From Microbacterium sp. (lineage in GTDB: Bacteria > Actinomycetota > Actinomycetes > Actinomycetales > Microbacteriaceae): DNA of 49,306 nucleotides. Every line of letters starts with the position of its first letter. Positions within the stretch are counted from its first letter, which is position 1. Position numbers and translations under genes: made by a program. Shown piece after piece: positions 22,879 through 44,211 of this stretch. Below the pieces are notes generated by a model, which worked only from the letters and a program-made list of their open reading frames with translations, was not told the origin of the DNA and ran no database searches. The stretch is from the NCBI GenBank assembly GCA_052092505.1, contig JBQDDT010000001.1, positions 1-49,306 of the forward strand, read 5' to 3'.

Positions 22879-22897
22879 CACACCGCTCACCCGGGTT

Positions 22898-26853: not shown

Positions 26854-29800
26854 ATGGCGAAGGTCGCCGCGCGCGTCAAGCGCGCATCGGTCGCCGTGCT
26901 TTCGCGAACCTACGTGCGCCAGGGGATCGTCCCGATCGCCGCGCGTCTCCTCGTGCGGGAGAGCATCCGCGACCGCTTCGAGAAGGCCGGATCCGCTCCG
27001 GCACCCGACGAACCCGGCCTCTCCCGACGCCAGTTCTATGAGCTGCACCCGCTGAATCCCCCGCGCCGATGGCTCTCCAACCGCGTGATCGCCCGTCGCG
27101 TCGTGCCGGGCCTCGCCGACCTCATGGAGGCCGCTCACTGCGTCGTCTCGCGCGCCGCCGAGCGTGCCGACGGGGTGTCGGTCGTTCCGCTCGAGTCGTT
27201 CCCCGCCGGAGTGACGGCCGACATCGACGGCCTCGTCGATCTGATCCGGCGGCGCGGCGTGGTCCGCGTCCTGCCGCTTCGCTGGGATCGGGGGGCGGGC
27301 TTCGCGCTCTCGGCGATCGATGACGGCTTCCTCCTCGACGGACGACCGGTCTCGCTCGACGAGCTGCGCGAGGCACTGGTCGAGGTCACCTCCCGAATCC
27401 GCTGCATCGTCCTCGACGAGACCGAGCGTCTCGAGGTCCTCCCCGGCGTCGACGCCGGCTCGACCCTCGTCCGCCTGTACGTGGCCCAGCGCGACGACCA
27501 GGCGAGGGTGCTCGACGCGGAGGTCCTCGGCGGGGACGTGCTCCGCGAGACGGGGGAGCGCGACGACGACCGCCTCATCCGCCCGCGGGCGTGGCTGAGC
27601 CGTTCGCCGTTCTACTCGCTCGACCTCGTGCGGGGGCGGTTCGCCTCGCGCAGGGGAGTCGACGAGACGACCGGCGCCCTGATCGGTGCCGACCCGCCGC
27701 GATCCCTTCCCGGCTACGTGGAGATGGTCGACGACATCGAGGCGGTGCTCAGCCACCGCCGGAGCCGGTTCGCGTTCATCTCCGTCGACGTCGTGCTCGC
27801 CGCCAGCGGCGGATACCGCCTCGTCGACATCGCGTCGCGTCCGGTCCGCCCGCACGGGAGGGACTTCAGCCCCGCGGCGGTCGCGCACCTCCAGGAGATG
27901 CGGCGCGACGGGGATCGCCGCAGGGCGCAGCGGGCGCGTGCGGCGTCGGCCAGGCATCGGGTCCGTCGGGGCCTCGTGCGCGCTCGGAGCCGGGTGGCCG
28001 CCTTCTCGCTCCGCTCGGCCGGCTTCATCGGCCCGTCGGCGAAGGAATGGAACCGTCTGCGGCTGCGGGATCGTCGCAGCGGACGTCACTCCGCCGGCGC
28101 GGTCCGCAGGGCGCACGCGCTCGGGTTCCGGCCTGGCACGATGGAGCGCTTCGCGATCGGCGCCGACGGTGCGCGCTCGTTCCTCTCGGAGCGGGACTAC
28201 CTCTACGCCCAGCCGCTCAACGGCAAGTACGCCAAGTGGATCCGCGACCGCGTCTCGGTGCTGATGGTGTTCCGGCCCTTCGATCGCCTGTTCGCTCCGA
28301 CGCACTTCCAGGTCTACCGCAGGGATCGCGGCCTGCACCTCGTCCCCCTCTCCGAGGAGGCGACGGCGCTCGGAGCGGATCTCGACGCGCTCGCGCAGCT
28401 CCTGCAGAGCCGCGGCGAGCTCGTGCTCACGCCGACCCGCTGGCGGGAGCGGGTCATCGCGCGCGTCTCGCACGACGGCCGTCGCTTCCGCGTGAACGGG
28501 ATGGCCTGCACGCCGGGCGAGCTCTTCGAGCTGCTGGCGAGCTATGCGCGCCGCGCGTCCCTCCTCTTCGTCGAGCGCCGCGGCGACGGCACGGTGGCGC
28601 CGACGGAACCGGGCGAGGACCGGCGGATCGTGCGCGTGACGATGATGAACGCGACGGGCGACGACCCGCGCGCCGCCGAGGTGCTCCTGCGGATCCCCGC
28701 GACGCTGCCGGCTCCCGGGGCCGGCGGAGGCGAGGAGCCGCGGGACACGACGCCGGACCCGGACGAGGCGCCGGCGACCGGCGAGGCCGTGGAATCGGGC
28801 TCCGCCGCGGCCGCCGCCGACGCCGAGGCCGAGGATGCGGCGGAGCGTCGCGCCGCGCTGTGGGCGCTGGCCGATCCGGAGACGGGCGACTACCGCGACG
28901 CGCGCCGGGCGATCGACGGCGAGCTGCGCACCTTCGAGCGCCACCCGAACACGGGGGAGCGGATCGCGGGGCGCATCGAGGGATGGCCGGACGCGCTTCG
29001 CACCCTGCAGGAGATGTGCCGGTTCGCCCCTCAGCTGCGGTTCCTGCAGTTCACCCTCGAACTGTCAGACGGCTCGGTGCTGATCCGACGGATCGCCGAG
29101 AAGCCGCTGCTGAGCGCCGAGTTCCCCGCCTCGCCCGAGATGGTCGCCTTCATCCAGGAGCAGGTCGACGAGAAGCGGCGTCGCGCGGCTCGCCCGCGGG
29201 CCAGGATCGCCCGCGGGCTCCACAACGCCAAGCTCAAGCTCCGTCGCGAGTTCGCCAAGGCGCTCTACCCGCAGGGGCTGCTGCCGTACCAGTCGGTCCG
29301 GTGGCTCGGCGACATCCGCCGCGACCTCCTCCAGCGCAACGGCGTCCCGATCCGCACCAAGCTGTGGGCTTACCGCAACGGCTTCCTGTCCTACCGCGTG
29401 CCGCAGTACGAGATCACGCCGGCGAACCGGACTCAGTTCATCTCCGACTTCGAGTACCGCTGGCTGCGCCACATCAACACGCGCTACAAGTACTGGCTCG
29501 AGGACAAGATCAGCATCAAGTACGTCGCCGCGGAGTACAACGAGTTCCTCCCCGGCTACTACTACATGACGAGCACGAACGGCGGCCGCAACCACCTGAT
29601 CCCGATGATGGACTGTCCACCGGGCTACGAGGCGCGCTTCGACGAGGTCCTCCGCCTGGCCAGGGAGAAGGGCATCCTGGCCCTCAAGCCCGACGAGGGC
29701 TCCCACGGCGACGGCTTCTACCGCCTCGCGCACGAGGACGGCGGATTCACTCTGAACGGCGTGCCCGCCACGGAGGACGAGGTCCTCGCGATCCTGCGCG

Positions 29801-30384
29801 ATCCGGAGAACCGCTATCTCGTCACCGAGTTCATCCGGATGCACCCGCGCCTGGCCGAGATCTACCCCACGTCGGTCAACACGATCCGGATGATCGTGTT
29901 CAAGCGGGATGCGGCCACCCCGGAGCTCGGCACCTGCTACCTGCGCATCGGCTCCGAGGCATCCGGCTACGTCGACAACACCGCGGCGGGCGGGCTGCTC
30001 GCGCGGATCGACGTCGCCTCCGGTCGGTTCGGCGATGCGAAGGTCCTGGAGAACGGGCGCGTCGTCGACAGCCCCTGCCACCCCGACACGGGGGTGCTGA
30101 TCGAGGGCGTCATCCCGAACTGGGAGCTCGTCAAGGCGCAGGTGCTGGAGATGGCCGCGAGCTTCTCGCAGCTGGAATACCTTGGATTCGATGTGGCCAT
30201 CACCGAGGATGGCTTCAAGATCCCCGAGATCAACCGCTTCCCGGACTTCCCGAGGATCGAGCGACTGACACCAGCGACGATCGACTACCTGCTCATGAAG
30301 CTCGGCGAGAAGAAGAGGCAGTACGGCTACCACCGCCGCCGCCCGCGGCGGCTCATCTCCCTGCCTCGGAGGGACGGGTCATGA
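26854..30384 (+). CDS. 1176-aa protein with three tandem sugar-transfer-associated ATP-grasp units (C-terminal one intact)
   Basis: C-terminal LKPDEGSHGDG, VTEFIRMHP, SVNTIRMIV, VDNTAAGG, HPDTG, YLGFDVAITEDGFKIPEINRFP; homologous decayed segments upstream. Confidence 0.78.
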   Translation: MAKVAARVKRASVAVLSRTYVRQGIVPIAARLLVRESIRDRFEKAGSAPAPDEPGLSRRQFYELHPLNPPRRWLSNRVIARRVVPGLADLMEAAHCVVSRAAERADGVSVVPLESFPAGVTADIDGLVDLIRRRGVVRVLPLRWDRGAGFALSAIDDGFLLDGRPVSLDELREALVEVTSRIRCIVLDETERLEVLPGVDAGSTLVRLYVAQRDDQARVLDAEVLGGDVLRETGERDDDRLIRPRAWLSRSPFYSLDLVRGRFASRRGVDETTGALIGADPPRSLPGYVEMVDDIEAVLSHRRSRFAFISVDVVLAASGGYRLVDIASRPVRPHGRDFSPAAVAHLQEMRRDGDRRRAQRARAASARHRVRRGLVRARSRVAAFSLRSAGFIGPSAKEWNRLRLRDRRSGRHSAGAVRRAHALGFRPGTMERFAIGADGARSFLSERDYLYAQPLNGKYAKWIRDRVSVLMVFRPFDRLFAPTHFQVYRRDRGLHLVPLSEEATALGADLDALAQLLQSRGELVLTPTRWRERVIARVSHDGRRFRVNGMACTPGELFELLASYARRASLLFVERRGDGTVAPTEPGEDRRIVRVTMMNATGDDPRAAEVLLRIPATLPAPGAGGGEEPRDTTPDPDEAPATGEAVESGSAAAAADAEAEDAAERRAALWALADPETGDYRDARRAIDGELRTFERHPNTGERIAGRIEGWPDALRTLQEMCRFAPQLRFLQFTLELSDGSVLIRRIAEKPLLSAEFPASPEMVAFIQEQVDEKRRRAARPRARIARGLHNAKLKLRREFAKALYPQGLLPYQSVRWLGDIRRDLLQRNGVPIRTKLWAYRNGFLSYRVPQYEITPANRTQFISDFEYRWLRHINTRYKYWLEDKISIKYVAAEYNEFLPGYYYMTSTNGGRNHLIPMMDCPPGYEARFDEVLRLAREKGILALKPDEGSHGDGFYRLAHEDGGFTLNGVPATEDEVLAILRDPENRYLVTEFIRMHPRLAEIYPTSVNTIRMIVFKRDAATPELGTCYLRIGSEASGYVDNTAAGGLLARIDVASGRFGDAKVLENGRVVDSPCHPDTGVLIEGVIPNWELVKAQVLEMAASFSQLEYLGFDVAITEDGFKIPEINRFPDFPRIERLTPATIDYLLMKLGEKKRQYGYHRRRPRRLISLPRRDGS

Positions 30385-31511
30385 CGGGGTGGCGCGCCAG
30401 GAGCGTGCGCTCGCTGCTGGCGTTCGTCTACGGCATCATCAAGCTCTGCACGGCCCAGCGGAGCGACAAGGTCGTGTTCCTCGGGCGGAGGATGAACCGC
30501 CTCCCGCTCGATTTCCGCCTGCTGATCGAGGAGCTCGAGCGCCGTGAGCCCGGCATCGAGACCGTGGCGATCTCGCGCTTCGTGAAGGGCGACGACCGGG
30601 AGGCGCTGTCCTTCTTCGTCGACGTGCTGCGCAGCATGTACCACCTCGCGACGGCGAAGGTGTGCGTGCTCGACTCGTACTGGCCGACCGTGTCGATGCT
30701 CGAGCACAAGCCGGGCCTCACCGTGTATCAGCTCTGGCACTCGCTCGGGAAGATCAAGCAGTCGGGGAAGCAGGCGCTCGGCCGGGTCGGCGGGCGCTCC
30801 GTGCAGGTCGCGCGGGCCCTGCGGATGCACGAGGGCTACGACTACGTGGTCGCGGGCGCCGAGGTCTGGAACCCGCACTACTGCGCGTCGTTCGGCGTGA
30901 CCCGCGATCAGATCCTGAACGTCGGGCTCCCGCGCGCCGACTACCTCGTGAGCGAGCGCGAGGCCGTCGCCGCGCGGATCCGGGAGGCGCACCCTGAGCT
31001 CGGCCGCCGCAAGCCGGTCGTGCTGTACGTGCCGACGTTCCGCCGCTGGGGGCGCGCGGCCGGAGCGGTGAAGCTCGCTCGGGCCCTCGATCTCGACCGG
31101 TACGACCTCGTCGTCAAACAGCACGAGAGCGACCGGATGCTCCCGCCGCGCGAAGAGCACTTCACCTGCCCTGGCTTCACCGGCACCCAGCTGCTGACAG
31201 TCGCTGACTATGTCGTGACCGACTACTCGTCGATCGCCCTCGAGGCCGCGATCCTCGACGTGAAGACCCTCTACTTCGTCTACGACTACGAGCGGTACCT
31301 CGACGACAACGGCGTCAACATCGACCTCTACCGCGAGATGCCGGGGTGCGTCTTCCAGGACGCCGGCGCGCTCGCCGCGGCCATCGACGGGGAGTATCCG
31401 ATCGATGTGCTCTCGAGCTACAAGGAGCGCTTCCTGTTCCACGATCCCGGCCACTCCACGCGCGATCTCGTCGACCACATGTTCGAGGTGGGTGAGCTGT
31501 GCACCCGATGA
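30381..31511 (+). CDS. CDP-glycerol/ribitol:polymer phosphotransferase family (TagB/TagF-like)
   Basis: QLWHSLG, GLPRAD, VLYVPTFR, VVTDYSS, YDYERY; ATGA overlaps at both ends (C-terminal part of ORF 27591..31511). Confidence 0.85.
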   Translation: MTGWRARSVRSLLAFVYGIIKLCTAQRSDKVVFLGRRMNRLPLDFRLLIEELERREPGIETVAISRFVKGDDREALSFFVDVLRSMYHLATAKVCVLDSYWPTVSMLEHKPGLTVYQLWHSLGKIKQSGKQALGRVGGRSVQVARALRMHEGYDYVVAGAEVWNPHYCASFGVTRDQILNVGLPRADYLVSEREAVAARIREAHPELGRRKPVVLYVPTFRRWGRAAGAVKLARALDLDRYDLVVKQHESDRMLPPREEHFTCPGFTGTQLLTVADYVVTDYSSIALEAAILDVKTLYFVYDYERYLDDNGVNIDLYREMPGCVFQDAGALAAAIDGEYPIDVLSSYKERFLFHDPGHSTRDLVDHMFEVGELCTR

Positions 31512-32548
31512 TCCGGCGCCTCGTGCGCAAGGCGAAGCTCGCGTACCAGTGGGTCACCCGCATCCTGCTCGCCCCCAACCGCTTCGGCGTCCCCCTGCTC
31601 ACGCGCCTCCGGCTGGCGGTGTTCGGCGGGTTCATCGGCGACCAGTACGCGCTGTACGACCTGAAGCACCGCTCGAAGCGCGAGTACCTCTCGGAGTTCG
31701 ACTGGTATCGCTCCCGGTGGATCAACGAGCCCTTCGACGCGATGCTGAACAACAAGATCATCTGCAACGAGGTGCTCCAGCCGCACATCGCCGTGTCGCC
31801 GATCTTCTTCGTGAAGAACAAGGGCAGGCTCGTGCGCACCGGAGACGGGCGCGCGCGTGTCAGCGTCGACGACGTGATCGCGAGCCTGCGCGAGCACGGG
31901 TCGCTCTTCCTCAAGCCCCTCACCGCGGGCAAGGGCAAGGGCGTGCATCGCCTCGACGCGCAGGACGGGGCGCTGTTCGTCGACGAGGTCGAGCACTCGG
32001 AGACCGAGCTGACGGCGTTCCTCGATGCGCAGGTCGACTGGCTCCTCACGAAGACCGTCGCCCAGCACCCCGATCTGGCGGCGATCTTCCCGCGCGCGAC
32101 GAACACGATCCGCCTGATCACGGTGCGCACGGGCGACGGCGGCGCGAAGCCGCTGTTCGCGGTGCTGCGGATCGGCACGGTGTCGACGATCCCCGTCGAC
32201 AACGGCAGTCGCGGCGGCCTCGTCGCCCGGATCGACCTCGAGAGCGGGGTCCTCAGCGAGGCGCGCACGCTCTGGTCGCACGACGTGTTCACGCACCATC
32301 CCGACACGGACGCGCCGATCGCCGGCGCGGTGGTCCCGCGGTGGGACGAGGTCCTCGGCGACGCGCTCAGGGTGGCCGACGCGTTCCCCTTCCTGCAGCT
32401 GGTCGCCTGGGACTTCCTCGTCGGGGAGGACGGCGTGTGGGTGATCGAGGCGAACACCTCGTCCGGCGTCAACATCGTCCAGCTCTGGGGCGGGCAGCGA
32501 AACGGCGCGCTCGGCGACTTCTACCGGTCCCACGGGGTGATCCGGTAG
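31508..32548 (+). CDS. Single-domain sugar-transfer-associated ATP-grasp ligase
   Basis: MLNNK, FLKPLTAGKGKGV, QHPDL, TNTIRLIT, VDNGSRGG, HPDT, LVAWDF, IEANT; ATG 31508 overlaps upstream stop. Confidence 0.82.
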   Translation: MIRRLVRKAKLAYQWVTRILLAPNRFGVPLLTRLRLAVFGGFIGDQYALYDLKHRSKREYLSEFDWYRSRWINEPFDAMLNNKIICNEVLQPHIAVSPIFFVKNKGRLVRTGDGRARVSVDDVIASLREHGSLFLKPLTAGKGKGVHRLDAQDGALFVDEVEHSETELTAFLDAQVDWLLTKTVAQHPDLAAIFPRATNTIRLITVRTGDGGAKPLFAVLRIGTVSTIPVDNGSRGGLVARIDLESGVLSEARTLWSHDVFTHHPDTDAPIAGAVVPRWDEVLGDALRVADAFPFLQLVAWDFLVGEDGVWVIEANTSSGVNIVQLWGGQRNGALGDFYRSHGVIR

Positions 32549-32551: not shown

Positions 32552-33181
32552 ATGCGGTACGTCATCATGGCGAACGGCCGCGGCACCCGCTGGAACGCGC
32601 ACCGCGGCATCACGAAGCACTTCATCGAGTTCGGGGGAGAGACGCTGCTGCGCCGGATCGTGCGCCAGGTCGCCGCGGCCGATCCGGGAAGCGACATCGT
32701 GATCTCGTCGGCCAACCCCGCGTACGAGACGCCGGGGGCTCGCCGGCATGCGCCCGTGCGCAACGAGCTCGAGATCGACCGCTTCGTGCCGGAGCTGATC
32801 GACGGCCCCGTGTGCTTCCTCTACGGCGACACGCTCTACGAGGATGCGGCGATCGAGGAGATCGTGTCCGGGCCGGTGGGAGAGCTCGAGTTCTTCGGCG
32901 AGCTGTCGGGGATCATCGCCGTGCGCTCGAGCGCGCCCGACACCTTCCACGCGCACCTCGAGCGGGTGAGGAGCCTGTACCTCGACGGTGAGATCGCCGA
33001 GTGCCGCGGATGGCAGCTGTACCAGTCGTATGAGGGCCTGCCGTTCGGGGAGATCCGGCTCGGGTCCGGCTTCCGCCGCACGACGAGCAGGTCGGTGGGA
33101 TTCAACTCCCCGACCGACCTCGAGGCCTTCGAGCAGTGGTACCGCGAGGCGCCGGCGACGCACGATCGGGGGAGCCTGTGA
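32552..33181 (+). CDS. Short NTP transferase (LicC/PntC-like cytidylyltransferase fold)
   Basis: VIMANGRGTRW, TKHFI..GETLLRR, FLYGDT, FNSPTDL. Confidence 0.72.
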   Translation: MRYVIMANGRGTRWNAHRGITKHFIEFGGETLLRRIVRQVAAADPGSDIVISSANPAYETPGARRHAPVRNELEIDRFVPELIDGPVCFLYGDTLYEDAAIEEIVSGPVGELEFFGELSGIIAVRSSAPDTFHAHLERVRSLYLDGEIAECRGWQLYQSYEGLPFGEIRLGSGFRRTTSRSVGFNSPTDLEAFEQWYREAPATHDRGSL

Positions 33182-33271: not shown

Positions 33272-34105
33272 GTGCCCGGAAGGTCTGAGACGCGCAGGAG
33301 GCCGCGCCTGCGGCGCGTCGTCCTGGCCGCCGCCGTCTTCGTCGTGCTCGTGGGGGCGTGGTGGCTCATCACGGCCGTCGGGCTCGTCCCTCCTGCCTAC
33401 CTGCCGACGCCCGGAGCCGTGGTCGAGGCGTTCGTCCAGGCCAACACGTGCCGCCCGATCGCGGAGGGCAGCTCCCGCGTCGTGTGCGGCGAGTTCGACT
33501 ACTTCATGTGGCAGCACCTCGTCGCCTCCCTCGGCAGGATCGGGATCGGCGTGGGGACCGCGATCGTCCTGGGGCCGATCGTCGGCTTCCTCATGGGCAC
33601 GATCAGCTGGCTGCACGACGCGTTCGATCCGTATCTGAACTTCCTGCGCGCGCTGCCCCCGCTCGGCTACGTCGGCCTGCTGATCGTGTGGTTCGGGATC
33701 GGCGACGTGTCGAAGTACTGGCTTCTGTTCCTGGCCGCGTTCCCGCCGCTCGTCATCGCCACGATGAACGGCGTGCGGGGCGTGAAGCAGGACCACATCA
33801 GGGCGGCGCAGTCGATGGGAGCCACCCGCTTCCAGGTCGCCACCCGCGTCCTGCTGCCCAGCGTGCTGCCGGAGCTGCTCAGCGGCATCCGCATCGCGAC
33901 GGGCTTCGCCTGGACCACCGTCGTCGCCGCGGAGCTGAACAACGGCATCCCCGGCATCGGCGGTCTCGCCTATCAGTCCGGCACCCAGATCCAGACGGCG
34001 CTCACGATCGCGAGCATCATCGTGATCGGAATCGTGGCCGTGGCGCTCGACTCGCTGATCAAGGCGCTGTCGAAGATCCTGACGCCATGGCAGGGCCGTT
34101 CCTGA
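33272..34105 (+). CDS. ABC transporter permease, TauC/SsuC family
   Basis: LPTPGAV, LRALPPLGY, LIVWFGIG, AAQSMGA (EAA-like), WTTVVAAE. Confidence 0.88.
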   Translation: MPGRSETRRRPRLRRVVLAAAVFVVLVGAWWLITAVGLVPPAYLPTPGAVVEAFVQANTCRPIAEGSSRVVCGEFDYFMWQHLVASLGRIGIGVGTAIVLGPIVGFLMGTISWLHDAFDPYLNFLRALPPLGYVGLLIVWFGIGDVSKYWLLFLAAFPPLVIATMNGVRGVKQDHIRAAQSMGATRFQVATRVLLPSVLPELLSGIRIATGFAWTTVVAAELNNGIPGIGGLAYQSGTQIQTALTIASIIVIGIVAVALDSLIKALSKILTPWQGRS

Positions 34106-34125
34106 CCACCCCTCGGAGGAGAAAC

Positions 34126-35187
34126 ATGACGCGCAACAAGACACTCGCGGCGACGGTCACCGCGCTCGCGGGGATCGCGCTTCTCAGCGGATGCGTGACG
34201 CCCCAGTCCAGCGGGAACGGGGGTGCGGATGCCGAGCTCACCGAGTGCCCCGTCGACGTCGACGAGTCGATCGACACGGAGGTCGACATCGCGTACCAGC
34301 CGATCCCGAACGGCGACCTGATCGTGAAGGACCTCGGCTGGCTCGAGACGTGCATGCCGAACGCGACGATCAACTGGAGCCAGTACTCGTCGGGCGCGGA
34401 CGTCGTGCAGGCGTTCGGGGCGAACTCGGCCGACATCGGCCTCGTCGGCTCCGGGCCGGCCGTGAAGCTGCTGGCCGAGCCCCTGGCCCTCGACGTGAAG
34501 ACGATCTGGATCTTCGACGTCATCGGCGCGGCCGAGTCGCTCATCACGCAGGAGGAGCTGTCGTCGGTCGAGGACCTGAAGGGCAAGACCGTCGCCGTCC
34601 CGTTCGGGTCGACCGCGCACTACTCGCTGACCGCGGCGCTCGACGAGGCGGGGATGACGGCGAAGGACATCGACCTCATCAACCTCGAGCCCGACGCGAT
34701 GCTCGCCGCATGGGAGCGCGGGGAGATCGACGCGGCATGGGTGTGGAACCCGACGCTGGCGCAGCTCGAGAAGGAAGGGCACCTGCTCCTCACCGCCGCC
34801 GAGACCGCCGAGGCGGGCCGCGCGACGTACGACCTCGCCGGCGGCACGACGGAGTTCGTCGAGGGCAACCCGGAGTTCATGGACGTGTGGACCGCCGCGC
34901 AGAACGCGGCGAGCGACATGATCCAGAACGACACCGACACGGCGGCCGAGAGCGTCGCCATCGAGCTCGGCGTCTCGGTCGACGAGGTGAAGACGCAGTT
35001 CGAGGGGTACGAGTACCCGACCGCGTCCGAGCAGCTCGACGACGCCTACTTCGGTGGCGGACTGGGCGACACCCTGCTGTCGACCGCGGAGTTCCTCACC
35101 GACCAGGGCGAGGTCGACGGCATCGGCGACGAGAAGCGCTACGCCGAGGCGCCGTGGAGCGACGCGATCGAGAACGCGGCGCAGTGA
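34126..35187 (+). CDS. ABC substrate-binding lipoprotein, TauA-like
   Basis: Lipobox LLSGC; IAYQ, W..YSSGADV, DIGLVGSGP, AESL, VAVPFGSTAHYSL, AAWERGEIDAAWVWNP resemble TauA; SD GGAGGAG. Confidence 0.85.
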   Translation: MTRNKTLAATVTALAGIALLSGCVTPQSSGNGGADAELTECPVDVDESIDTEVDIAYQPIPNGDLIVKDLGWLETCMPNATINWSQYSSGADVVQAFGANSADIGLVGSGPAVKLLAEPLALDVKTIWIFDVIGAAESLITQEELSSVEDLKGKTVAVPFGSTAHYSLTAALDEAGMTAKDIDLINLEPDAMLAAWERGEIDAAWVWNPTLAQLEKEGHLLLTAAETAEAGRATYDLAGGTTEFVEGNPEFMDVWTAAQNAASDMIQNDTDTAAESVAIELGVSVDEVKTQFEGYEYPTASEQLDDAYFGGGLGDTLLSTAEFLTDQGEVDGIGDEKRYAEAPWSDAIENAAQ

Positions 35188-35972
35188 TGAAGCTCAGCCT
35201 GGCCGGCGTCACGCAGCAGTACGTGACGGACAAGGGGGAGAGGGTCGACGCCCTCGGCTCCACCGACCTCGACATCGAGGAGGGCCAGTTCGTGTGCGTC
35301 GTGGGGCCGTCGGGCTGCGGCAAGTCGACCCTGCTGAACATCATCGCCGGGTTCCTCGAGCCCACGACCGGCACCGTGCGGATGGACGGCGAGGAGATCA
35401 CCGGGCCGGACCGCGCCCGCGGGGTCGTGTTCCAGCAGCCGACGCTCTTCCCGTGGCTGACGGTGCGCCGCAACGTCGAGTTCGGGCTGAAGCTGAAGGG
35501 GCTCTCGGCCGACGAGCGCGGCCGCGCGGCCGCCGACGCGCTCGAGCTCGTCGGGCTGTCGGACTTCCATGAGAGCAAGCCGTACGAGCTCTCGGGCGGG
35601 ATGCAGCAGCGCACGCAGATCGCGCGCGTGCTGGCGAACGATCCGTCGGTCGTGCTCATGGACGAGCCGTTCGGGGCGCTCGACGCGATCACGAGGGAGA
35701 AGATGCAGAACGATCTCCTCGACGTGTCGCGCGAGAAGAGGAAGACGGTGTTCTTCATCACGCACAGCGTCGATGAGGCGATCGTGCTCGGGGAGCGGGT
35801 GCTCGTGATGAGCCCGCGACCCGGCCAGATCGTGCGGGACGTCCCCGTCGCGATCTCGAAGGCGTACGGTCGGCCGCTGAAGGGCGCGGAGATCCGTGAG
35901 ACCCCGGAGTTCAGTGAGATGCGCGACTCGATCGCGTCGAGCATCGGGATGTCGGCGGACGCCGCGGCGTGA
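35187..35972 (+). CDS. ABC ATPase, TauB/SsuB family
   Basis: GPSGCGKST, VVFQ, LSGGMQQR, LMDEPFGALD, ITHSVDEA; TGATG overlap. Confidence 0.92.
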   Translation: MKLSLAGVTQQYVTDKGERVDALGSTDLDIEEGQFVCVVGPSGCGKSTLLNIIAGFLEPTTGTVRMDGEEITGPDRARGVVFQQPTLFPWLTVRRNVEFGLKLKGLSADERGRAAADALELVGLSDFHESKPYELSGGMQQRTQIARVLANDPSVVLMDEPFGALDAITREKMQNDLLDVSREKRKTVFFITHSVDEAIVLGERVLVMSPRPGQIVRDVPVAISKAYGRPLKGAEIRETPEFSEMRDSIASSIGMSADAAA

Positions 35973-36002: not shown

Positions 36003-39000
36003 ATGGCTGATGGCGACATGATCCGCAGGGCACGCTCCGTCGCGCGCAAGGTGAAGCGCCGCGTGCAGGCGGCGACGAACACTCCCGATGCGGCGATGAG
36101 TGCCGCGGCGGATGGCGTGGTGAGGGTGACGGCCGGCGGCGACCGCACGGAGGCCGTGCCGAGACGACCGCGGGCGAAGATGGTCACGGAAGCCGGTGTC
36201 CTCTTCCAGATCGCCGACGGCGAGGCGAAGGTCACCGGTCTCGAAGAGGGGGTCGTCGAGGCCATGATCCCCGCGGAGGTCGCCGGAGCCGTCGTCACGA
36301 CGATCGGGCGCGAGGCGTTCCAGGACAGTGTGGACCTCATCGCGGTCCGGATCCCCGAGTCCCTCACCGTGCTCGGCGCTCGGGCGTTCGTCGGCTGCAC
36401 CTCGCTCACCGACGTCGAGCTGCCGAGCGATCTGACGGTGATTAACGCGAGTGCCTTCGAGGGGTGCACGGCGCTCGAGCGCGTCATCCTCCCTCACGAG
36501 CTGCAGCGCATCGCGCGGCGTGCGTTCGCCGGCTGCACCGCGCTGGCGGAGATGCCCCACTACGTGAAGACCGGCATCAGCATCGGCCTCACGGTGGATC
36601 GGACGATCGTCGAGGAGGCCTTCCCGACGGAGCTCCGCCACATCGGAGAGGAGGCGTTCTCCGGGTGCGGTGCGCTCCGCAAGGTGGTCATCCCGTTCCG
36701 CACGGAGAAGCTCCCCCGGGGAGTCTTCCGGGGGTGCACCGCGCTCGAGACCGTCTGGCTGCATGCGGGCATCACGGAGATCGGCGCGGGCGCCTTCGCC
36801 GCGTGCCGCGAGCTCGACCGCATCTCCGTCCCCGCCGCGACCGAGACGATCGGTGAGGGCGCCTTCCCCGCGCAGGTGACGATCGTGTGCGCCGAGGGCT
36901 CCGCCGCCCGCGCTCACGCGGAGTCCGCCGGTCTGCGCACCTCCGACGCGACGGCCGTCGGCGAGCCCATCCACTCCGCATTCGGTGCGACCGCGTCGCC
37001 GACGGTCGCGGACGTCGTCGCCTCGCCCGAGTCGACCCAGGCGTTCCTCGACCGGTACGCGCTGCGCCCGGCGGCGGAGCCCATCGCCCGCCCGGACACC
37101 GAGATGATCGACCGTCCATCGTCGCCCAGCCGGTTCCGGCTGCGGGACGGGGTGTACGAGCCGATCGCCGGCTCCGATGCGGGTGGTGAGGTGACGCTGT
37201 CGATGGTCGGCGATCTGATGTGCCGCTTCCGTCAGCAGGAGACGGCTCTCGTCGACGGCGAGTTCGACTTCTCGGAGAGCTTCCGCGACGTCAAGCCGCT
37301 CCTCGAGGATTCCGATCTGGCGATCGGCAATCTCGAGGCGATGCTCTCGACGTCGGTCCCCTACATGTTCGAGTCGAAGTACGTCGAGGATCGTCCCCAC
37401 CTGAACGCACCGCCGGCGTTCGCCGCCGCCGTGCGGGACGGGGGGTTCGACATGGTGCTCAACGCACAGAACCACATGTACGACGCGGGTGCGCAGGGCG
37501 TGCTCGAGACGCTCGACGCGCTCAACCGTGCCGAGCTGATCCACGGGGGTCTCTACGCGTCGCCGGAGGAATCGAGATTCCAGCTGTTCCGAATCAAGGG
37601 GATCACCCTCGGCGTCGTCTCGTACCTCGACGGTGCCCGTCAGAAGATGAAGCAGGCGAACTTCACGCCGGAGGGCCTCGCCGCCACCGCGAGCCCCTTC
37701 GATGCGGAGCGGGTGCGCGAGGACATCGCGGCCGCACGCGAGGCCGGGGCGGAGTTCGTTCTCGCCTACGCGCACTGGGGGCGCGAGTACACCGACCACA
37801 TCACGCAGCGGCAGCAGCGGTTCGCCCGGATGTTGGTCGACGGCGGCGTGGATTACGTCTTCGGGTCGCACTCGCATTGCCCGCAGCCGTACACGATCAT
37901 GACGGCGCAGGACGGCAAGCGGGTCCCCGTGATCTACTCCGGAGGGAACTTCGTCTCCGACATCGGGCTCGCCCGTCCGATCACACAGGACACGTTCGTC
38001 GCCCGCCTGACGCTCGGACGCGACGCAGGCGGCTCGGTGCAGATCCTCCGCGACGGCTACGTGCCGTGCCGCATCGTCGAGGGGCGCGACATCCGCGGAT
38101 TCGTCCGCGTGGTTCCCTGCGATGAGCTCATCTCCGGGACGCAGGACTACAGCCAGCTCCAGGCGGAAGAGGACGTGAGCCGCATCTCCGCGGCGCTCGG
38201 CCGACAGTACTCGCGACTCGCGGCCGACGGGTCACCGATGCCGGAGCGCGAGGATGCGGCGCGAGGGATGACGCCGGAGGACGAGCTCGTCGACGCCTAC
38301 GCGCTGCGCGAGCCGGCATTCCTTCGCCAGGAGCACGTCGTCGACGCCGGGCGCGCTCCGTCGTACCGCTTCGACGCGTCGTCCGAGGCGTGGCGGCGCG
38401 AGCACGACACGAGCGTCGGCGAGGCGATCCTCGTGTGCGCCGGATCGATCCTCTACGACAGCGCGCTCGAGCGCGCGGCCGAGGTCGGGGACCGGTACGA
38501 GTTCCGCTCGCACTTCCGTCACGTCCGCGAGGCCCTCGGTGCAGGCGACCTCGCCGTCGGCAGCCTCGGCACGATCGTCGCCGACATGTATCCGCCGATG
38601 TCGGTCATGGCGCGCGAGCTGGCCCGCGGTCACTACGCGAACGCGCGACCGGAGTACCTCGACGCGCTCCGGTTCGCCGGCTTCGACTGCCTCGCGCTCG
38701 CCAACCCGTACAACCTCGATGCCGGCGTGCGCGGGGTCGCGGCGACCGAGCGAGCCGTTCTCGAGAGCGGGATCGTCCCGAGCGGGATCGGCCGGAAGAA
38801 GACCCCGATCATCGACGTCAACGGCATCAGGATCGCGGTGTTCTCGCTCACCCTGAACGAGTACAGCATGCGCACCTACCTCACGGAGGAGGGCGCCGGA
38901 GCGATCCTCAATGTGTTCGACGAGCAACGTGCGCGTGTCGACATCGCGACAGCGCGTGAAACGGGCGCGGAGTTCGTCCTCGTCTACCTCGACTGCCGCT

Positions 39001-40850
39001 CCTCGGGTGACCAGCTGAGGTTCGCCGACCGCCTCGCGGCTGGGCGGACGGCCGCTGAGGCGGGCGCGGACTACGTCATCTGCGTCCAGCCGCACGTGCT
39101 ATCCAAGCACCGCACGCACACGACGGCCGACGGCCGCGCCGTTCCCATCGCGACTGGACTCGGGACCTTCATGGCGGGGCCGACGAATCGCGTCGACGCG
39201 TCCGGGGCGCTTCTGAAGATCGCGGTGCGGCGGCGCCCGGACGGCGGGGTGGAGATCGCGGACACGTTCCTTCCGCTGAAGCGCTGCTCGGATTACGCGG
39301 GCACGCGGAACGCGATCGTGTCGGCCGATGCCACGCACAATCCGTCGTACGACGCGAGTGAGCTCGGCCCGGCCGCGCGCGAGGCGGCCGAGAAGCTCGG
39401 GGAGGGCATCGCGCCGGAGCGCCCGCGCGAGGTCTCGGTCCGCTCGCAGTTCCGGCCGCAGGTCACTCCCGCGGAGATCGCCGAGATCCTCGGCGTCGCG
39501 TTCTCGGACGCTGACAGGCGCACGCTCGGTGACGCCATCGACCGACCGGTCGAGAACGTCGCTCTGCGCCAGGAGGACCTCCGCCGTGGCGGGGTCGCGG
39601 TCTTCGTCCGGCGTCCGGGAAAGCTCGCCGAGACCGAGCAGATCAGCCCCGCGCACGTGCACGACGTCGGGTCGCTGTTCGCGATCGCGACCGCGCCGCA
39701 GCGGGGACTTCCCACGCTGGTCGTCCCGAACGCGCTCGCCGCCTACGAGACGATCGTCACTTCGATCCGAGCGAAGTACGACCCGGTGACGGTCGCGATC
39801 ACCGGAACGGTCGGAAAGACGACCGCGAAGGAGCTCATGGCGGAGGCCTTCCACCGTCACTTCCGCACGCTCGTGGTCCGGGGCAACAACAACACTCTGG
39901 TGACCGTCGGTCAGGTCGTGCAGAAGCTCACACCCGACTACGAGGCGTACATCCAGGAGGTCCACGGCGGCTCGCCGGCGTCGGCCCACCGCATTTCGCG
40001 CGTCATCCGTCCCGACGTCGCGCTGATCACCGCGATCGGGGACGGGCATCTCGCGCAGATGGGGTCGATCGAGAAGGTCGTCGAGGGCAAGATGCAGATC
40101 ATCGACGGGCTGAAGGACGGCGGCGTCCTCGTGATCAACCACGACAACGAGCACCTCAAACACCAGGAACCACCGGTGCGGACGGTCCGCTACAGCGTGG
40201 AGGACGCCTCCTGCGACTACTTCGCCCGCGACATCCGCGACACCGGGGAGCGGCTCGAGTTCCAGATCGTTGCCCCGGACGGGGTCTTCGAGGCGAAGCT
40301 GAACTTCCAGGGCGTCCACAACGTCAGCAACGCGCTCGGGGTCTTCGCCGCCTCGCGCGAGGCGGGGATCCCGCCGCACACGATCATCGCGGGAATGTCG
40401 AGGTTCGTGCCGGACACGGTGCGCCAGAACCTCGCGGAGGTCGGCGGCTACCGCCTGCTCATCGACACCTACAGCTCCACACCGATGTCGGTGCTCTCCG
40501 CGGTGCGGACCCTCAGCGCCGTCCCCGTGGCGGAGGGGTCGCGACGGATCGCGGTGCTCGGTGACGCCCCCGACCTCGGAGTGCGGGCGAAGGACGCGCA
40601 CATCGAACTCGGCGAGCAGATCGCCGATCTCGACGTCGACCTCGTCCTCTGCTGTGGCGAGGCGTCCGTGCACCTCGTGGAGGCGGCGCGGAAGAAGGGG
40701 ATGAACGCGCACTTTTTCGCCGGACGCGCGGAGTTCAACCGCAAGATCGTCGAGGAGAGCCGGCCGGGCGACGTCCTGCTCTTCAAAGGCGGGATGCGGG
40801 TCAAGCTGCTGGAGAACACGGTCCATCCGCTCTTCGGACGGATCGTCTGA
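36003..40850 (+). CDS. Giant fusion: BspA-type LRR + CapA/PgsA metallophosphoesterase + degenerate CapA + MurF-like ligase
   Basis: LRR repeats (IG..AF.GC..L..V.LP); CapA motifs GDLM, GNLE, AQNHMYD, YAHWG, GSHSH, YSGGNF; Mur motifs AITGTVGKTTAKE, ITAIGDGH, HNVSNA, RRIAVLGD, LFKG; SD AAGGA before ATG 36003 (ORF open from 35982). Confidence 0.8.
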   Translation: MADGDMIRRARSVARKVKRRVQAATNTPDAAMSAAADGVVRVTAGGDRTEAVPRRPRAKMVTEAGVLFQIADGEAKVTGLEEGVVEAMIPAEVAGAVVTTIGREAFQDSVDLIAVRIPESLTVLGARAFVGCTSLTDVELPSDLTVINASAFEGCTALERVILPHELQRIARRAFAGCTALAEMPHYVKTGISIGLTVDRTIVEEAFPTELRHIGEEAFSGCGALRKVVIPFRTEKLPRGVFRGCTALETVWLHAGITEIGAGAFAACRELDRISVPAATETIGEGAFPAQVTIVCAEGSAARAHAESAGLRTSDATAVGEPIHSAFGATASPTVADVVASPESTQAFLDRYALRPAAEPIARPDTEMIDRPSSPSRFRLRDGVYEPIAGSDAGGEVTLSMVGDLMCRFRQQETALVDGEFDFSESFRDVKPLLEDSDLAIGNLEAMLSTSVPYMFESKYVEDRPHLNAPPAFAAAVRDGGFDMVLNAQNHMYDAGAQGVLETLDALNRAELIHGGLYASPEESRFQLFRIKGITLGVVSYLDGARQKMKQANFTPEGLAATASPFDAERVREDIAAAREAGAEFVLAYAHWGREYTDHITQRQQRFARMLVDGGVDYVFGSHSHCPQPYTIMTAQDGKRVPVIYSGGNFVSDIGLARPITQDTFVARLTLGRDAGGSVQILRDGYVPCRIVEGRDIRGFVRVVPCDELISGTQDYSQLQAEEDVSRISAALGRQYSRLAADGSPMPEREDAARGMTPEDELVDAYALREPAFLRQEHVVDAGRAPSYRFDASSEAWRREHDTSVGEAILVCAGSILYDSALERAAEVGDRYEFRSHFRHVREALGAGDLAVGSLGTIVADMYPPMSVMARELARGHYANARPEYLDALRFAGFDCLALANPYNLDAGVRGVAATERAVLESGIVPSGIGRKKTPIIDVNGIRIAVFSLTLNEYSMRTYLTEEGAGAILNVFDEQRARVDIATARETGAEFVLVYLDCRSSGDQLRFADRLAAGRTAAEAGADYVICVQPHVLSKHRTHTTADGRAVPIATGLGTFMAGPTNRVDASGALLKIAVRRRPDGGVEIADTFLPLKRCSDYAGTRNAIVSADATHNPSYDASELGPAAREAAEKLGEGIAPERPREVSVRSQFRPQVTPAEIAEILGVAFSDADRRTLGDAIDRPVENVALRQEDLRRGGVAVFVRRPGKLAETEQISPAHVHDVGSLFAIATAPQRGLPTLVVPNALAAYETIVTSIRAKYDPVTVAITGTVGKTTAKELMAEAFHRHFRTLVVRGNNNTLVTVGQVVQKLTPDYEAYIQEVHGGSPASAHRISRVIRPDVALITAIGDGHLAQMGSIEKVVEGKMQIIDGLKDGGVLVINHDNEHLKHQEPPVRTVRYSVEDASCDYFARDIRDTGERLEFQIVAPDGVFEAKLNFQGVHNVSNALGVFAASREAGIPPHTIIAGMSRFVPDTVRQNLAEVGGYRLLIDTYSSTPMSVLSAVRTLSAVPVAEGSRRIAVLGDAPDLGVRAKDAHIELGEQIADLDVDLVLCCGEASVHLVEAARKKGMNAHFFAGRAEFNRKIVEESRPGDVLLFKGGMRVKLLENTVHPLFGRIV

Positions 40851-40866: not shown

Positions 40867-43800
40867 ATGCGCAGGTTCGTTGCACGAGTCGCGAAGGCGC
40901 CATTGCGCGCCGTGAAGGCCGTCAACCGGCGCACCTCGAACGTCGTGTCGGAACCCATCGCCGGCGGTCTGCTGTCGACGGGCAGGACGGGAGACCTGCC
41001 CGTTCTCGCGCGACTCTGCGTCGCTCGAACGGGTGCGTCGGGCCGTGCGCTGCTCATTGCACGGGCGGCCTCACTGAACGGCGGGCGCATCGAACGCCTG
41101 CAGCGGCTGCTCCGAGACTTCCCCGAGACGTTCGGCCGCGTCCTCCTCTTCGGTGAGAATGCGACGGCATATGCCGGACGCCTCGCCCGAGTCGCGTCGT
41201 CGGTCGAGGCGATCGATGACCGCTATGCGCTGCGCGACGCGATCGCTGACTACTGGGGGACGAGTGACGCCCCGGCGATCGCGGTCGTCGGTGCGACCAA
41301 CCCCGGCATCGCCTGGGCCGTCGACGATGTGCTCGGCACCTGCACTGTCCTGTCTTCCGTCGGCGTGCGCAGGCGTGCGATGCGGGTGAAGACAGCACAC
41401 GTCGAGGTCGACCTCGTCTCCGGGGCGGGAGCGTATGTGGTCTCCAGTGGAGTCGAAGCAGGGGACCTCGTCGTGCCGAACACCGCCGCCGGCATGGGGG
41501 TCTCGACGATCGCGCCGGGGGCTTTTCGAGGGGCCTCGCTCACGTCCATTCTCGCGCCGGCGCCTCTGCGGACGATCGGCGCGGAGGCCTTTGCGGGGTG
41601 CTCCGATGTCACGCGGGTCGTCCTGCCAGGCACGCTGCGTTACGTCGGGGCGTCCGCCTTCGAAGGCGCCGCCGCGCTGGAGCGGATCCACATCCCGAAT
41701 GGCGTGCACACGATCGGTCCTTGGGCGTTCGCTGGATGCGGCGCGCTGCGGAAGGTCGTGCTGCCCGAGTCCCTCGTGACGATCGCGGACGATGCCTTCG
41801 TCGGCGCTCACCCGGAGCTCGAGTTCCACGCCCCGGAGGGGTCGGAGGCTTATCGCTGGGCGAGCGAGCGCGGACGGGTGGTCAGTGCGGAACCGGCGCC
41901 GGCCGCAGAGACGCTGGAGACCGTGCGTGTGACCCAGGATGGTGTGGAGTACGCCGTCCTCCCGGGCGGGATGGTCGAGGCGTGCCGGGTCGACGACTCG
42001 GTGTCCGGCGTTCTGGAGCTGCCCGCAGAGGTGCACGGGCACGCGGTCCGTGGGATCGGGCATGACTTCGTCGGGGGTAAGACGTCGGTCTCCGAGATCG
42101 TCCTGCCGGCGAGTGCCAGGTGGGTCTCGGCGCACGCGATCGCGAGGCCGGTCGTGAAGCGCGTGCGCGGGGCTCGAAATCTGCAGTGGCGCGGCCGTGG
42201 CACTGTGCAGAAGGCGCTGATCCGTTTCAACCCGCGCAAGCCCATCGACGCCGACTCGGTGCGTCTGACGATGCGGATGCTCGCGGAACTGGTCGACATC
42301 GACGTCCCGGCAGACTTCGCCGACGACATGGATGAGCCCTACCCGTCGCTCGCGTCGTCGGTCTTCACGTCGGGGGTGGGCAGCCTGTACTTCGCCTCCG
42401 CGCGCGAGCTGACTCCCGACGTCGTCGATCGGCTCGTGGGACGGGGCGTGCGGGCGTTCGTGAGTGACGGCGCGGTGCGAGACGGCCGTGGCGAGCCCGT
42501 CCCGCAGGCGTTCACGGACGATCCACGTCGCGCATTCGAATCGGCCTGTGCGTGGATCGCACGGCAGCACTCGGTCACGACGATCGCCATCACGGGCAGC
42601 GTCGGCAAGACCAGCACGAAGGAGATGATTCGGCACGTCTGCGAAAGCGCGCTGTCGGTGCACTACAGCACCGGCAACCAGAACGGCCCCGCTCAGGTCG
42701 CGCGCCACGCGCAGAACGTCACCGACAAGCACGACGTCTTCATCCAGGAGACAGGGGCGGCATACCCGGGCATCGTCGAACGGGGCGCGCGGATCCTCCG
42801 TGCGAACGGCTTCGTCATCACCAACATCGGGCTCAATCACGTCGGGAACTACGGCGGCAGCCAGGAGCGGCTCCTCGCTGACAAGCTGAGCCACGATCGG
42901 CACATGCCGGAGGACGGCGTGGCCTTCGTCAATCTGGACGATCCGAAGCTGCGGGAGGTCGAGCTGACCCACCGCATCATCTCGTATGCCGTCGACGCCC
43001 GAGACGCCGACTACTTCGCCGAGGACGTCGTCGAGGAAGAGGGCACGGTGCGCTTCCAGATCGTCGAGTCGTCCTCGGGCGAGCGCACGCCGGTCGTCGT
43101 CAACGCGGTCGGGCGCCACAACGTCTCGAACGCGGTCGTCGCGTTCGCGGTGGGCCGATGGCTGGACGTCCCAGTACGGAAGATCGTGGAGGGCATCGGC
43201 TCGTACGAGGGGGAGGGGCTCCGGCAGAACCTCACCGAGATCGGCGGTCGGCGCGTGCTCATCGACTGCTACAACGCGTCGGAAGTGGCCATCGGGAGCA
43301 CCGCGGACGCGCTGCAGGCGATCTCGGTTCCGGAGGGCGGTCGGCGCATCTACGTCGTCGCCGACATCGACGACAAGCTCGGCAGCATCACCGAGGAGGT
43401 GCATCGTCGCGTGGGCGTCGCGCTCGCCGAGGCCGACGGCATCGACCGCTTCTACCTCTTCGGCGCGCACGCGGCATGGATCGCGGAGGAGCTGACCGCA
43501 CTCGGTCGTGACGCGGTCGCGACGACCGATCGCGACGAGCTGACCGAGAGGCTGCGCGACGACCTGCGCGAGGACGACCTCGTCGCGTTCAAGGGCGGTC
43601 AGCAGATGGCTCTGTCGATCACGATCGACACGCTGTTCGGCACGGCGTTCGTGCTCTCCGACGGCGACGTGCTCGAGAAGCGCGGCACGAACATCTCAGA
43701 CGGAGGCATGACGTACCGGCTCATCGACGAGTACGGCGCTCAGCTGCGGAAGGTGCCCCCGGAGTTCCCCGGCACGTCGCTGGTGGTCGAGCCCGTGATC

Positions 43801-44211
43801 GACGGCGTACCCGTGTACATGGTCGGACGGTCGGCGTGCTCCAACTCTCCGCTGGTGGAGGCATCGATCCCCGAACCGGTCCGCACGATCGCGCGGGCGG
43901 CCTTCTTCCGCAACCGCGCGCTCGAGCGGATCGATCTGCCCGCCACGCTCCTCCACATCGGCCAGAGCGCGTTCAACGGGTGCTCGTCGCTGCGCGAGAT
44001 CGTCGTCCCCGAGGGAGTGACGACGATCGGACACCGCGCGTTCTTCCGCTGCACCTCGCTCGAGCGTCTGGTGCTCCCGGCATCCGTGCGGACGATCGAT
44101 CCGGAGGCGTTCCGCGGGTGCACGGCGGTGACGATCGAGTGCCCCGCCGGCTCGTACGCGGAGAGCTTCGTCCGCGAGCACTACCGCAGGCTCGCCGTCG
44201 CCTCGACCTGA
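40867..44211 (+). CDS. Fusion: BspA-type LRR + MurF-like ligase + LRR
   Basis: LRR blocks near both ends; AITGSVGKTSTKE, ITNIGLNH, HNVSNA, LIDCYNAS, HRRVG, VAFKG; SD GAAGGAAG. Confidence 0.8.
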   Translation: MRRFVARVAKAPLRAVKAVNRRTSNVVSEPIAGGLLSTGRTGDLPVLARLCVARTGASGRALLIARAASLNGGRIERLQRLLRDFPETFGRVLLFGENATAYAGRLARVASSVEAIDDRYALRDAIADYWGTSDAPAIAVVGATNPGIAWAVDDVLGTCTVLSSVGVRRRAMRVKTAHVEVDLVSGAGAYVVSSGVEAGDLVVPNTAAGMGVSTIAPGAFRGASLTSILAPAPLRTIGAEAFAGCSDVTRVVLPGTLRYVGASAFEGAAALERIHIPNGVHTIGPWAFAGCGALRKVVLPESLVTIADDAFVGAHPELEFHAPEGSEAYRWASERGRVVSAEPAPAAETLETVRVTQDGVEYAVLPGGMVEACRVDDSVSGVLELPAEVHGHAVRGIGHDFVGGKTSVSEIVLPASARWVSAHAIARPVVKRVRGARNLQWRGRGTVQKALIRFNPRKPIDADSVRLTMRMLAELVDIDVPADFADDMDEPYPSLASSVFTSGVGSLYFASARELTPDVVDRLVGRGVRAFVSDGAVRDGRGEPVPQAFTDDPRRAFESACAWIARQHSVTTIAITGSVGKTSTKEMIRHVCESALSVHYSTGNQNGPAQVARHAQNVTDKHDVFIQETGAAYPGIVERGARILRANGFVITNIGLNHVGNYGGSQERLLADKLSHDRHMPEDGVAFVNLDDPKLREVELTHRIISYAVDARDADYFAEDVVEEEGTVRFQIVESSSGERTPVVVNAVGRHNVSNAVVAFAVGRWLDVPVRKIVEGIGSYEGEGLRQNLTEIGGRRVLIDCYNASEVAIGSTADALQAISVPEGGRRIYVVADIDDKLGSITEEVHRRVGVALAEADGIDRFYLFGAHAAWIAEELTALGRDAVATTDRDELTERLRDDLREDDLVAFKGGQQMALSITIDTLFGTAFVLSDGDVLEKRGTNISDGGMTYRLIDEYGAQLRKVPPEFPGTSLVVEPVIDGVPVYMVGRSACSNSPLVEASIPEPVRTIARAAFFRNRALERIDLPATLLHIGQSAFNGCSSLREIVVPEGVTTIGHRAFFRCTSLERLVLPASVRTIDPEAFRGCTAVTIECPAGSYAESFVREHYRRLAVAST

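Follow-up and report, generated by a model that had tools for sequence, protein, structure and literature searches.

We analyzed a 49,306-nucleotide stretch of DNA from Microbacterium sp. (NCBI GenBank assembly GCA_052092505.1, contig JBQDDT010000001.1, positions 1 to 49,306; hereafter the window), in which one gene on the forward strand (36003..40850) encodes a protein of 1615 amino acids composed of leucine-rich repeats (LRRs), two CapA-family domains (CapA-1 and CapA-2), and a MurF-like ligase. Based on sequence comparison, predicted structures, and genomic context, we estimate a probability of roughly 55% that this fusion is a soluble protein which ligates and then epimerizes amino acids, building a short D-amino-acid peptide, probably on a teichoic-acid-like wall polymer. 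The epimerase reading is supported by the fact that the characterized relative of CapA-1 is an epimerase (MslH) whose required groups are present in CapA-1, and by the fact that the partners of CapA in this family are amide ligases (Mur and ATP-grasp). Mur and ATP-grasp ligases yield a C-terminal residue with a free carboxylate; since this is the target of MslH, ligation followed by epimerization is the most economical model.

The gene is a single open reading frame (ORF) counted from its ATG, and an alternative in-frame GTG at 35982 would give 1622 amino acids. Pfam matched it to LRR_5, two stretches of PGA_cap (PF09587), Mur_ligase_M, and Mur_ligase_C. The BspA-type LRR block lies at 36285..36869 (forward strand, residues ~95–289; PF13306, E 1.5e-35, and a family hidden Markov model), and the PGA_cap stretches lie at 37194–37961 (E 1.6e-61) and 38430–39173 (E 4.3e-29), scoring 208 and 102 bits where the cut-off is 27. 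CapA-1 and CapA-2 align motif against motif, with 29% identity over 303 amino acids (E 4e-28). An earlier note on this DNA, made from the sequence alone, had read the same order in one protein (LRR-CapA-CapA*-MurF-like, CapA* being a dead copy); all 12 motifs it quoted were found (residues 403, 442, 490, 590, 621, and 646 in CapA-1; 814, 853, 901, 996, 1027, and 1052 in CapA-2), as was the P-loop of the ligase (TGTVGKTT at residue 1267). All three junctions (LRR/CapA-1, CapA-1/CapA-2, and CapA-2/Mur) are spanned by contigs of three studies; two of the runs, X1 and X2, may themselves be source samples, and run X4 of the third study represents a diverged strain. Because these contigs span the junctions and 34 other protein clusters share the domain order, the fusion is genuine and not the assembly artefact that the earlier note had kept in mind. 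A promoter and terminator scan gave a signal no better than chance.

To place CapA-1 (37182..38237, forward strand, residues ~394–745), we compared its predicted structure with solved ones. An AlphaFold model of the two CapA domains had a mean predicted local distance difference test (pLDDT) value of 88.9 and a predicted template modeling (pTM) score of 0.81. The closest solved fold for both domains is MslH, a lasso peptide epimerase acting on a C-terminal Trp (PDB 8GQ9, 8GQA, 8GQB, 8ITG, and 8ITH; NF038314; PMC10406935), to which CapA-1 aligns with Z 30.6–31.1 (root-mean-square deviation 3.1–3.5, 302–305 residues aligned), whereas the best phosphoesterase-fold chain reaches Z 17.5. In Foldseek, the four MslH entries took ranks 1–4. 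By sequence, too, MslH entries were the only solved structures matched by CapA-1 at E <0.001. The sole NCBIfam match of CapA-1 was likewise epimerase_MslH (E 4.5e-11), at 41.8 bits against a cut-off of 700.

According to PMC10406935, the fold of MslH is calcineurin-like and holds a single Ca(II), whose ligands are E44, N87, H259, H261, and the C-terminal carboxylate of the substrate; the enzyme inverts C-alpha with two dyads, H88/D91 and H295/D11, all four residues of which are essential, and has no space for the second metal of YmdB. HMMER aligned E44, N87, H88, D91, and H259 of MslH with E445, N490, H491, D494, and H591 of CapA-1, and the motif register assigned D11 and H295 to D404 and H625. 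CapA-1 thus retains both dyads (D404/H625 and H491/D494) and three of the four metal ligands; the position of H261 is G593 (Gly in 37/37 sequences), and H623 of the GSHSH motif may take its place, completing a ligand set of E445, N490, H591, and H623. Like MslH, CapA-1 has neither a signal peptide nor a transmembrane segment. It differs in being fused to a ligase and LRRs (MslH is a stand-alone protein), in having a second, dead copy beside it, and in its context, which is not that of a RiPP precursor (a peptide made on the ribosome and modified after translation): no lasso-peptide genes were found among the scanned neighbor ORFs of the fusion. The catalytic set is complete in 34 of the 36 homologues bearing this domain and in 28/28 further LRR-CapA proteins, which bears out the earlier note in regarding CapA-1 as the live domain.

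The same note had labelled this domain a phosphoesterase or hydrolase. On that view CapA-1 would be a metal-dependent hydrolase (a phosphatase, phosphodiesterase, or amidase) acting on what the ligase makes, which it would unmask, trim, or recycle; it might, for instance, dephosphorylate an amino-alcohol phosphate once the amide is made. Its calcineurin-like fold fits this alternative, and YmdB-type and 5'-nucleotidase phosphoesterases are the next structural matches (Z 15–17.5); YmdB (4B2O) and the 5'-nucleotidases have the core fold and the NH..D and GHxH-type motifs in common with CapA-1. Phosphodiester chemistry is also present in the surrounding gene cassette (a TagB-like enzyme and a nucleotidyltransferase), and a ligase-then-phosphatase order is known from Campylobacter capsule amidation. 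On the other hand, the Z score of MslH exceeds that of the best phosphoesterase by about 13, and the ligands of a second metal are missing: position 406 is M or L in 36/36 sequences, so the His of the DxH motif is absent, and position 446, equivalent to Asn40 of YmdB by sequence register, is T, A, or S in 34/36, as in the single-metal MslH. The His of DxH is reportedly lacking in YmdB itself as well. Structure and literature searches turned up no phosphoesterase of the CapA family. We therefore consider a hydrolase unlikely, and CapA-1 is probably a peptide epimerase, as judged from its sequence and predicted model.

The C-terminal part of the fusion (39444..40841, forward strand, residues ~1148–1613) has the complete three-domain fold of MurF, the UDP-MurNAc-tripeptide:D-Ala-D-Ala ligase (4QDI, 3ZL8, 1GG4, and 4CVK; TIGR01143), with Z 37.7 to 4QDI and only about 23 to FolC-like proteins. 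The residues K1272 (P-loop), E1319, H1349, K1363, R1474, and D1488, to which we assign catalytic and ATP-related roles, are all kept; across the family, K1272, E1319, H1349, and D1488 occur in 38/38 sequences, R/K1474 in 38/38, and K1363 in 31/38, in agreement with the intact Mur-type ligase seen by the earlier note. The N-domain (39444–39773, forward strand) is different. Neither D[ST]R nor GxxxDGH, the motifs that we take to mark the UDP-MurNAc-peptide site, occurs in it; across the family, 36 of 38 members have neither, whereas 81 of 90 canonical-like loci have both. The D-Ala-D-Ala acceptor motifs (DxYNAN/S and GxMxELG) are altered to DTYSST and GDAPDLG, and the TIGR01143 score is 226.4 against a cut-off of 288.6. 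In a FastTree phylogeny of 176 Mur domains, for which 26 canonical-like loci and a subset of the near-identical rows of the family were used, a branch separate from canonical MurF (support 100) united 132 rows associated with CapA or LRR, the fusion ligase and a downstream paralogue among them. The canonical murF of the same genome adjoins murE on another contig (C225), whereas the fusion lies outside a dcw cluster. The fusion ligase is, by these sequence features, a MurF paralogue, probably with a different acceptor, and not the housekeeping MurF. Two relatives, P0193 (ATP-grasp/Mur/Mur/CapA) and P0201 (Mur/Mur/CapA), have Mur domains outside the main clade and possibly represent an independent CapA-Mur fusion.

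CapA-2 (38415..39422, forward strand, residues ~805–1140) appears to be a pseudo-enzyme module of this ligase. It was predicted to have the CapA fold (Z 28.5 to MslH), as the earlier note had assumed, and a model of CapA-2 together with the Mur domain had a pLDDT of 90.0 and a pTM of 0.86. Its dyad and metal residues are lost in 38/38 sequences, namely the N491/H-equivalent His, both dyad His, and the D404 and E445 equivalents. The loss of ligands described in the earlier note therefore stands for the His, D404, and E445 equivalents but not for the Asp of the third motif, which is kept as D906 (38/38) and shifted by one residue. In spite of its degeneration, 39 of 296 columns of the domain are still at least 94% conserved. 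CapA-2 lies immediately N-terminal of the ligase in 38/38 sequences, and split-gene forms break between CapA-1 and CapA-2: CapA*-Mur is a gene of its own, encoding ~850–900 amino acids, in L004:8184-13108, L005:9983-12541, L104:2410-5046, and L003:4446-12586, in the last of which the live LRR-CapA is encoded on the other strand, joined to an ATP-grasp domain. Thus, the dead copy recognized by the earlier note belongs to the ligase module and goes with the ligase even when the genes are split, a membership which that note had missed.

With regard to the origin of CapA-2, a 40-row tree of CapA domains picked with the family model placed a dead clade (100/100; a long branch) inside a 99/96 branch with live domains of CapA-Mur fusions, separate from an LRR-CapA clade (93/99). 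An approximately unbiased test did not reject CapA-1 and CapA-2 as a single clade (p 0.107). An origin other than internal duplication is thus favored but not shown; in the scenario favored from these sequences, CapA activity came to be provided by an LRR-CapA, in trans or in cis, after which it was lost from a CapA-Mur fusion that had been live. A complex prediction with CapA-1 and CapA-2 as separate chains scored 0.00, which counts neither for nor against contact.

No transmembrane segment or signal h-region is evident in the fusion, since its highest 19-residue hydropathy is 1.49 (hydropathy being the only measure used). Similarly, a hydrophobic N-terminus is missing in 115 of 116 CapA+Mur proteins (hydropathy <1.6 there), and no Tat-like motif was found in P0001–P0037. 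The LRR_5 repeats are shared with BspA-type surface adhesins, but by hydropathy the fusion has neither an export signal nor a hydrophobic surface anchor. Instead, residues 4–21 (36012..36065, forward strand) form a basic amphipathic helix, a predicted membrane-surface anchor, with a hydrophobic moment of 0.77 and a net charge of +7, placing it in the top 0.1% of the protein's own 18-mers. Such an N-terminal helix was found in 20/36 homologues versus 41/1800 internal control windows, and it opens five of the six enzymes of the cassette (starts 26854, 30381, 31499, 36003, and 40867), the nucleotidyltransferase being the one without. The earlier note had seen no signal peptide or transmembrane segment either; of the cytoplasmic multienzyme it proposed, the soluble and probably cytoplasmic nature holds up, whereas its hydrolase part is better replaced by a ligase coupled to an epimerase.

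That note treated the fusion alone and missed a conserved surface-polymer cassette around the gene. The cassette genes, whose occurrence is patchy, form a closely packed run on the forward strand. The run contains a 1176-residue protein of three tandem ATP-grasp_ST-like repeats (26854..30384), with an ExN motif in the last repeat only; a TagB/TarB-like CDP-polyol phosphotransferase (30381..31511; PF04464, E 9.9e-37; 114 bits with the TarB model against a cut-off of 500); an ATP-grasp_ST amide ligase (31499..32548; PF14397, E 3.8e-35); a short nucleotidyltransferase-like protein (NTP_transf_3, 32552..33181; E 8.5e-06, just under the cut-off), which is conserved in the related loci L002–L004 and L006; and the LRR-MurF-like-LRR paralogue (40867..44211, 1114 amino acids), which belongs to the same ligase clade and starts 16 nt downstream of the fusion gene. 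Between the nucleotidyltransferase and the fusion, a TauC/TauA/TauB-like ABC importer (33272..35972, forward strand; genes at 33272–34105, 34126–35187, and 35187–35972) is not conserved in related loci. Taurine was considered as a substrate and rejected, the ABC genes being below the taurine equivalog cut-offs as well as not conserved. An APC-family amino-acid permease adjoins the gene in L004:6694-8127, L005:12610-14058, and L104:668-2212, where the window has the Tau-like importer; an amino compound taken up from outside may feed the pathway.

The set of ATP-grasp, TagB-like, ATP-grasp, and nucleotidyltransferase genes adjoins the family gene in four of six loci from named genomes (L002, L003, L004, and L006, the last of which shows LRR-CapA only); L001 has ATP-grasp alone before the contig ends. 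Among 21 metagenome loci, seven contain CapA-2 (the remainder encode other CapA proteins), and three of these seven have the set, three show none of it in the available DNA, and one is too short. In two gut relatives (L107 and L108), gpsA is found on one side of the cassette and tagF-, tagB-, tagGH-, and tagO-like genes on the other. The TagB-like gene is a fixed cassette member shared with the wall teichoic acid TagB/TarB/TagF system, though the known substituents of wall teichoic acid, such as D-Ala esters and sugars, are not known to need an ATP-grasp or Mur ligase or an epimerase. In L002, L004, and L006 the homologues of the triple ATP-grasp_ST protein have one degenerate and one intact repeat, and the triple protein thus shows, within one operon, the same pairing of dead and live copies as the CapA fusion.

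A mechanism can be proposed from these elements. First, the nucleotidyltransferase and the TagB-like enzyme would put a phosphodiester-linked acceptor on a lipid-bound polymer at the inner membrane face, where the basic amphipathic helices would keep the cassette enzymes. Second, the ATP-grasp and MurF-like domains would make amide bonds via acyl-phosphates, each leaving a C-terminal residue with its carboxylate free. Third, CapA-1 would hold this carboxylate on one metal ion and invert C-alpha with H491/D494 and H625/D404. Fourth, the dead CapA-2 may serve the ligase as a module for structure or acceptor binding, perhaps in place of the degenerate UDP-MurNAc site. A more far-reaching version, which we regard as tentative and less probable than its contrary, is a carrier-free assembly line in which ATP-grasp ligases and ligases derived from MurF take turns with an MslH-type epimerase, with LRRs and dead copies as scaffold, to place a strain-specific D-amino-acid peptide on wall teichoic acid, the whole unit being mobile among Actinomycetia, Coriobacteriia, and gut Bacillota.

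Another possible product is a free or capsule-like polyamide of mixed D/L composition, similar to poly-gamma-glutamate (PGA) or cyanophycin, in place of a short decoration on a side chain, with the TagB-like enzyme only as an anchor. CapA/PgsA of PGA synthesis belongs to the same Pfam family (PF09587) and is also paired with a Mur-fold ligase (CapB/PgsB there); CapB is a member of the Mur family, and B. subtilis PgsA has reportedly been demonstrated, in later work, to be an epimerase. The combination of a Mur-type ligase and CapA is the logic of PGA synthesis, and an epimerase role of CapA there has been proposed in PMC8179263. Neighboring ATP-grasp proteins resemble the ATP-grasp region of cyanophycin synthetase (165 bits in L001, against a cut-off of 877), and tandem dead repeats could bind a growing chain. 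In contrast to the PGA system, the fusion is a single chain with no membrane anchor and has teichoic-acid-type neighbors; no capB or capC model matched the fusion, 43 window ORFs (Pfam), or 17 ORFs (NCBIfam). The ligase is MurF-like and not CapB- or FolC-like, at least four different ligase domains suggest a defined short sequence, and the locus is without a dedicated exporter. Such a polyamide seems improbable to us.

Slightly more doubtful still is a role in remodeling peptidoglycan precursors, in which an alternative MurF and an epimerase would stand in for racemase and Ddl and produce a non-standard stem terminus or cross-bridge. The MurF-like fold and catalytic residues, the MurF-like acceptor motifs in 19/38 of the family, the fusion of some relatives to S11 (P0108, P0117, and P0146) or VanY (P0133, P0137, and P0142) D,D-carboxypeptidase domains, and the precedent of Alr-MurF fusions are in its favor. 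According to the accessible part of PMC10214165, the Mur N-domain binds UDP-MurNAc-peptide, and the survey of Mur chimeras in that part names no CapA fusion. In the fusion, this domain is without its motifs, the acceptor motifs differ, and the conserved neighbors are of teichoic-acid type and not dcw or van. That the gene is a chimera of the assembly, or is decaying and lacks a coherent function, as the 80%-complete, 255-contig assembly and the degenerate domain might suggest, is hardly credible given the contig-spanned junctions, the 34 same-order clusters, and the conserved columns of CapA-2.

Several points weigh against a ligating and epimerizing fusion acting on a wall polymer. The catalytic motifs are common to the whole PF09587 family and so, taken alone, cannot tell an epimerase from a hydrolase; identity between MslH and CapA-1 is only ~22%, H261 of MslH is replaced by Gly, and its substitution by H623 is our inference. 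Both CapA domains are degenerate in P0035 and P0036, the two exceptions mentioned above. CapA-2 is reduced to a remnant in several relatives, so that it may be dispensable. As to the cassette, L005 has CapA*-Mur with no cassette gene within 10 kb; L104, L105, and L110 show no cassette genes in the available DNA; L106–L108 are near-copies of L002; and neither tagO nor tagGH adjoins the fusion gene in the window. The link to a polymer is one of gene neighborhood. Finally, SH3, Ig-like, or choline-binding domains, as a rule found outside the cell, occur in a few members of the family.

We also examined the distribution of the fusion. A protein search gave 71 matches; 35 clusters (at 90% identity, including the fusion itself) have the order LRR-CapA-CapA*-Mur, the other 34 being 38–86% identical to the fusion; the order in one more is CapA-LRR-CapA*-Mur, and another two have a shorter N-terminus. 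Named carriers among the homologues are Microbacterium, Brevibacterium, and Glutamicibacter, to which the loci add Eggerthella, Slackia, and Eubacterium. Of 150 representatives (50% identity), 38 combine Mur with a live CapA, and in 44 the only CapA beside Mur is dead, partial, or a remnant; a further 44 consist of Mur plus LRR only, 22 of Mur alone, and two have LRR-CapA-CapA* but no Mur. Fusions of CapA with ATP-grasp domains occur as well, with either domain first; these partners, like the D,D-carboxypeptidase domains added in some relatives, also speak for the ligating and epimerizing reading. P0042, P0043, P0047, and P0050 (~1500–1650 amino acids) end in LRR-live CapA, and their N-terminal ~850–980 residues have little or no Pfam match. 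Among the best 80 loci listed in a genome-wide scan, six were family members and the others ordinary MurF. The fusion was not found in 300 searched genomes of the family (MurF-level matches only, best E 5.8e-41), in 400 of the class, in 200 of the family of G692, or in 300 of the class of G691 (one Mur-only match); no match among 42 plasmid records spanned 80% of the query. Atlas leads all scored below 0.9, including CapA+Mur(+S11) clusters of 394 and 152 members (0.81). The architecture is a rare but recurrent member of a larger family of CapA, MurF-like, LRR, and ATP-grasp fusions. The earlier note had treated a common, characterized architecture as a reason to doubt its reading; it is uncharacterized and rare, as that note assumed, though not unique. 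The fusion is accessory and rare, which is the usual pattern among surface-polymer loci.

Upstream of the cassette, the window contains two tRNA-Ser genes (22791–23336). DNA similarity to five congeneric genomes stops at this pair, and none of the five contains a long match to the cassette, which suggests a variable region next to a tRNA, although GC content is unshifted. Between the tRNAs and the cassette are genes for a DUF4012 membrane protein (23492–25363, forward strand) and a TPR-repeat protein (25407–26879, reverse strand, divergent from the cassette), neither of which was found in related loci. Elsewhere in the genome, contig C129 has a second TagB/F-like match with glycosyltransferase-like neighbors (judged by eye), and contig C61 has two more ATP-grasp_ST-like genes on opposite strands.

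Every single domain of the fusion is known, and in pairing a ligase with CapA it follows the same logic as PGA synthesis. In the searchable literature, as far as its accessible text goes, neither the cassette nor a CapA-Mur fusion was found described. Work on amidoligases by Iyer et al. in 2009 and the paper on PgsA epimerase activity may bear on novelty. By sequence and model, the fusion falls outside MurF, the CapA of PGA synthesis, and MslH proper, while plausibly working like them.

The CapA family (PF09587) is widespread, mostly annotated just as "capsule synthesis," and its sole structurally characterized member is an epimerase. Since the fusion combines a soluble, anchor-free CapA and its presumed partner ligase in one chain with a natural dead control, the general question of whether CapA proteins are epimerases becomes directly testable, and the named carriers Microbacterium, Brevibacterium, and Glutamicibacter are culturable and harmless. 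If the proposal is true, it would explain a clade of MurF paralogues that are labelled as peptidoglycan enzymes in databases, and Gram-positive wall polymers would bear D-amino-acid peptides made without racemases, tRNA, or nonribosomal peptide synthetase carriers. The more far-reaching version, if true, would in addition define a hitherto unknown class of surface antigens in Gram-positive bacteria, and epimerization as a role of CapA proteins in general.

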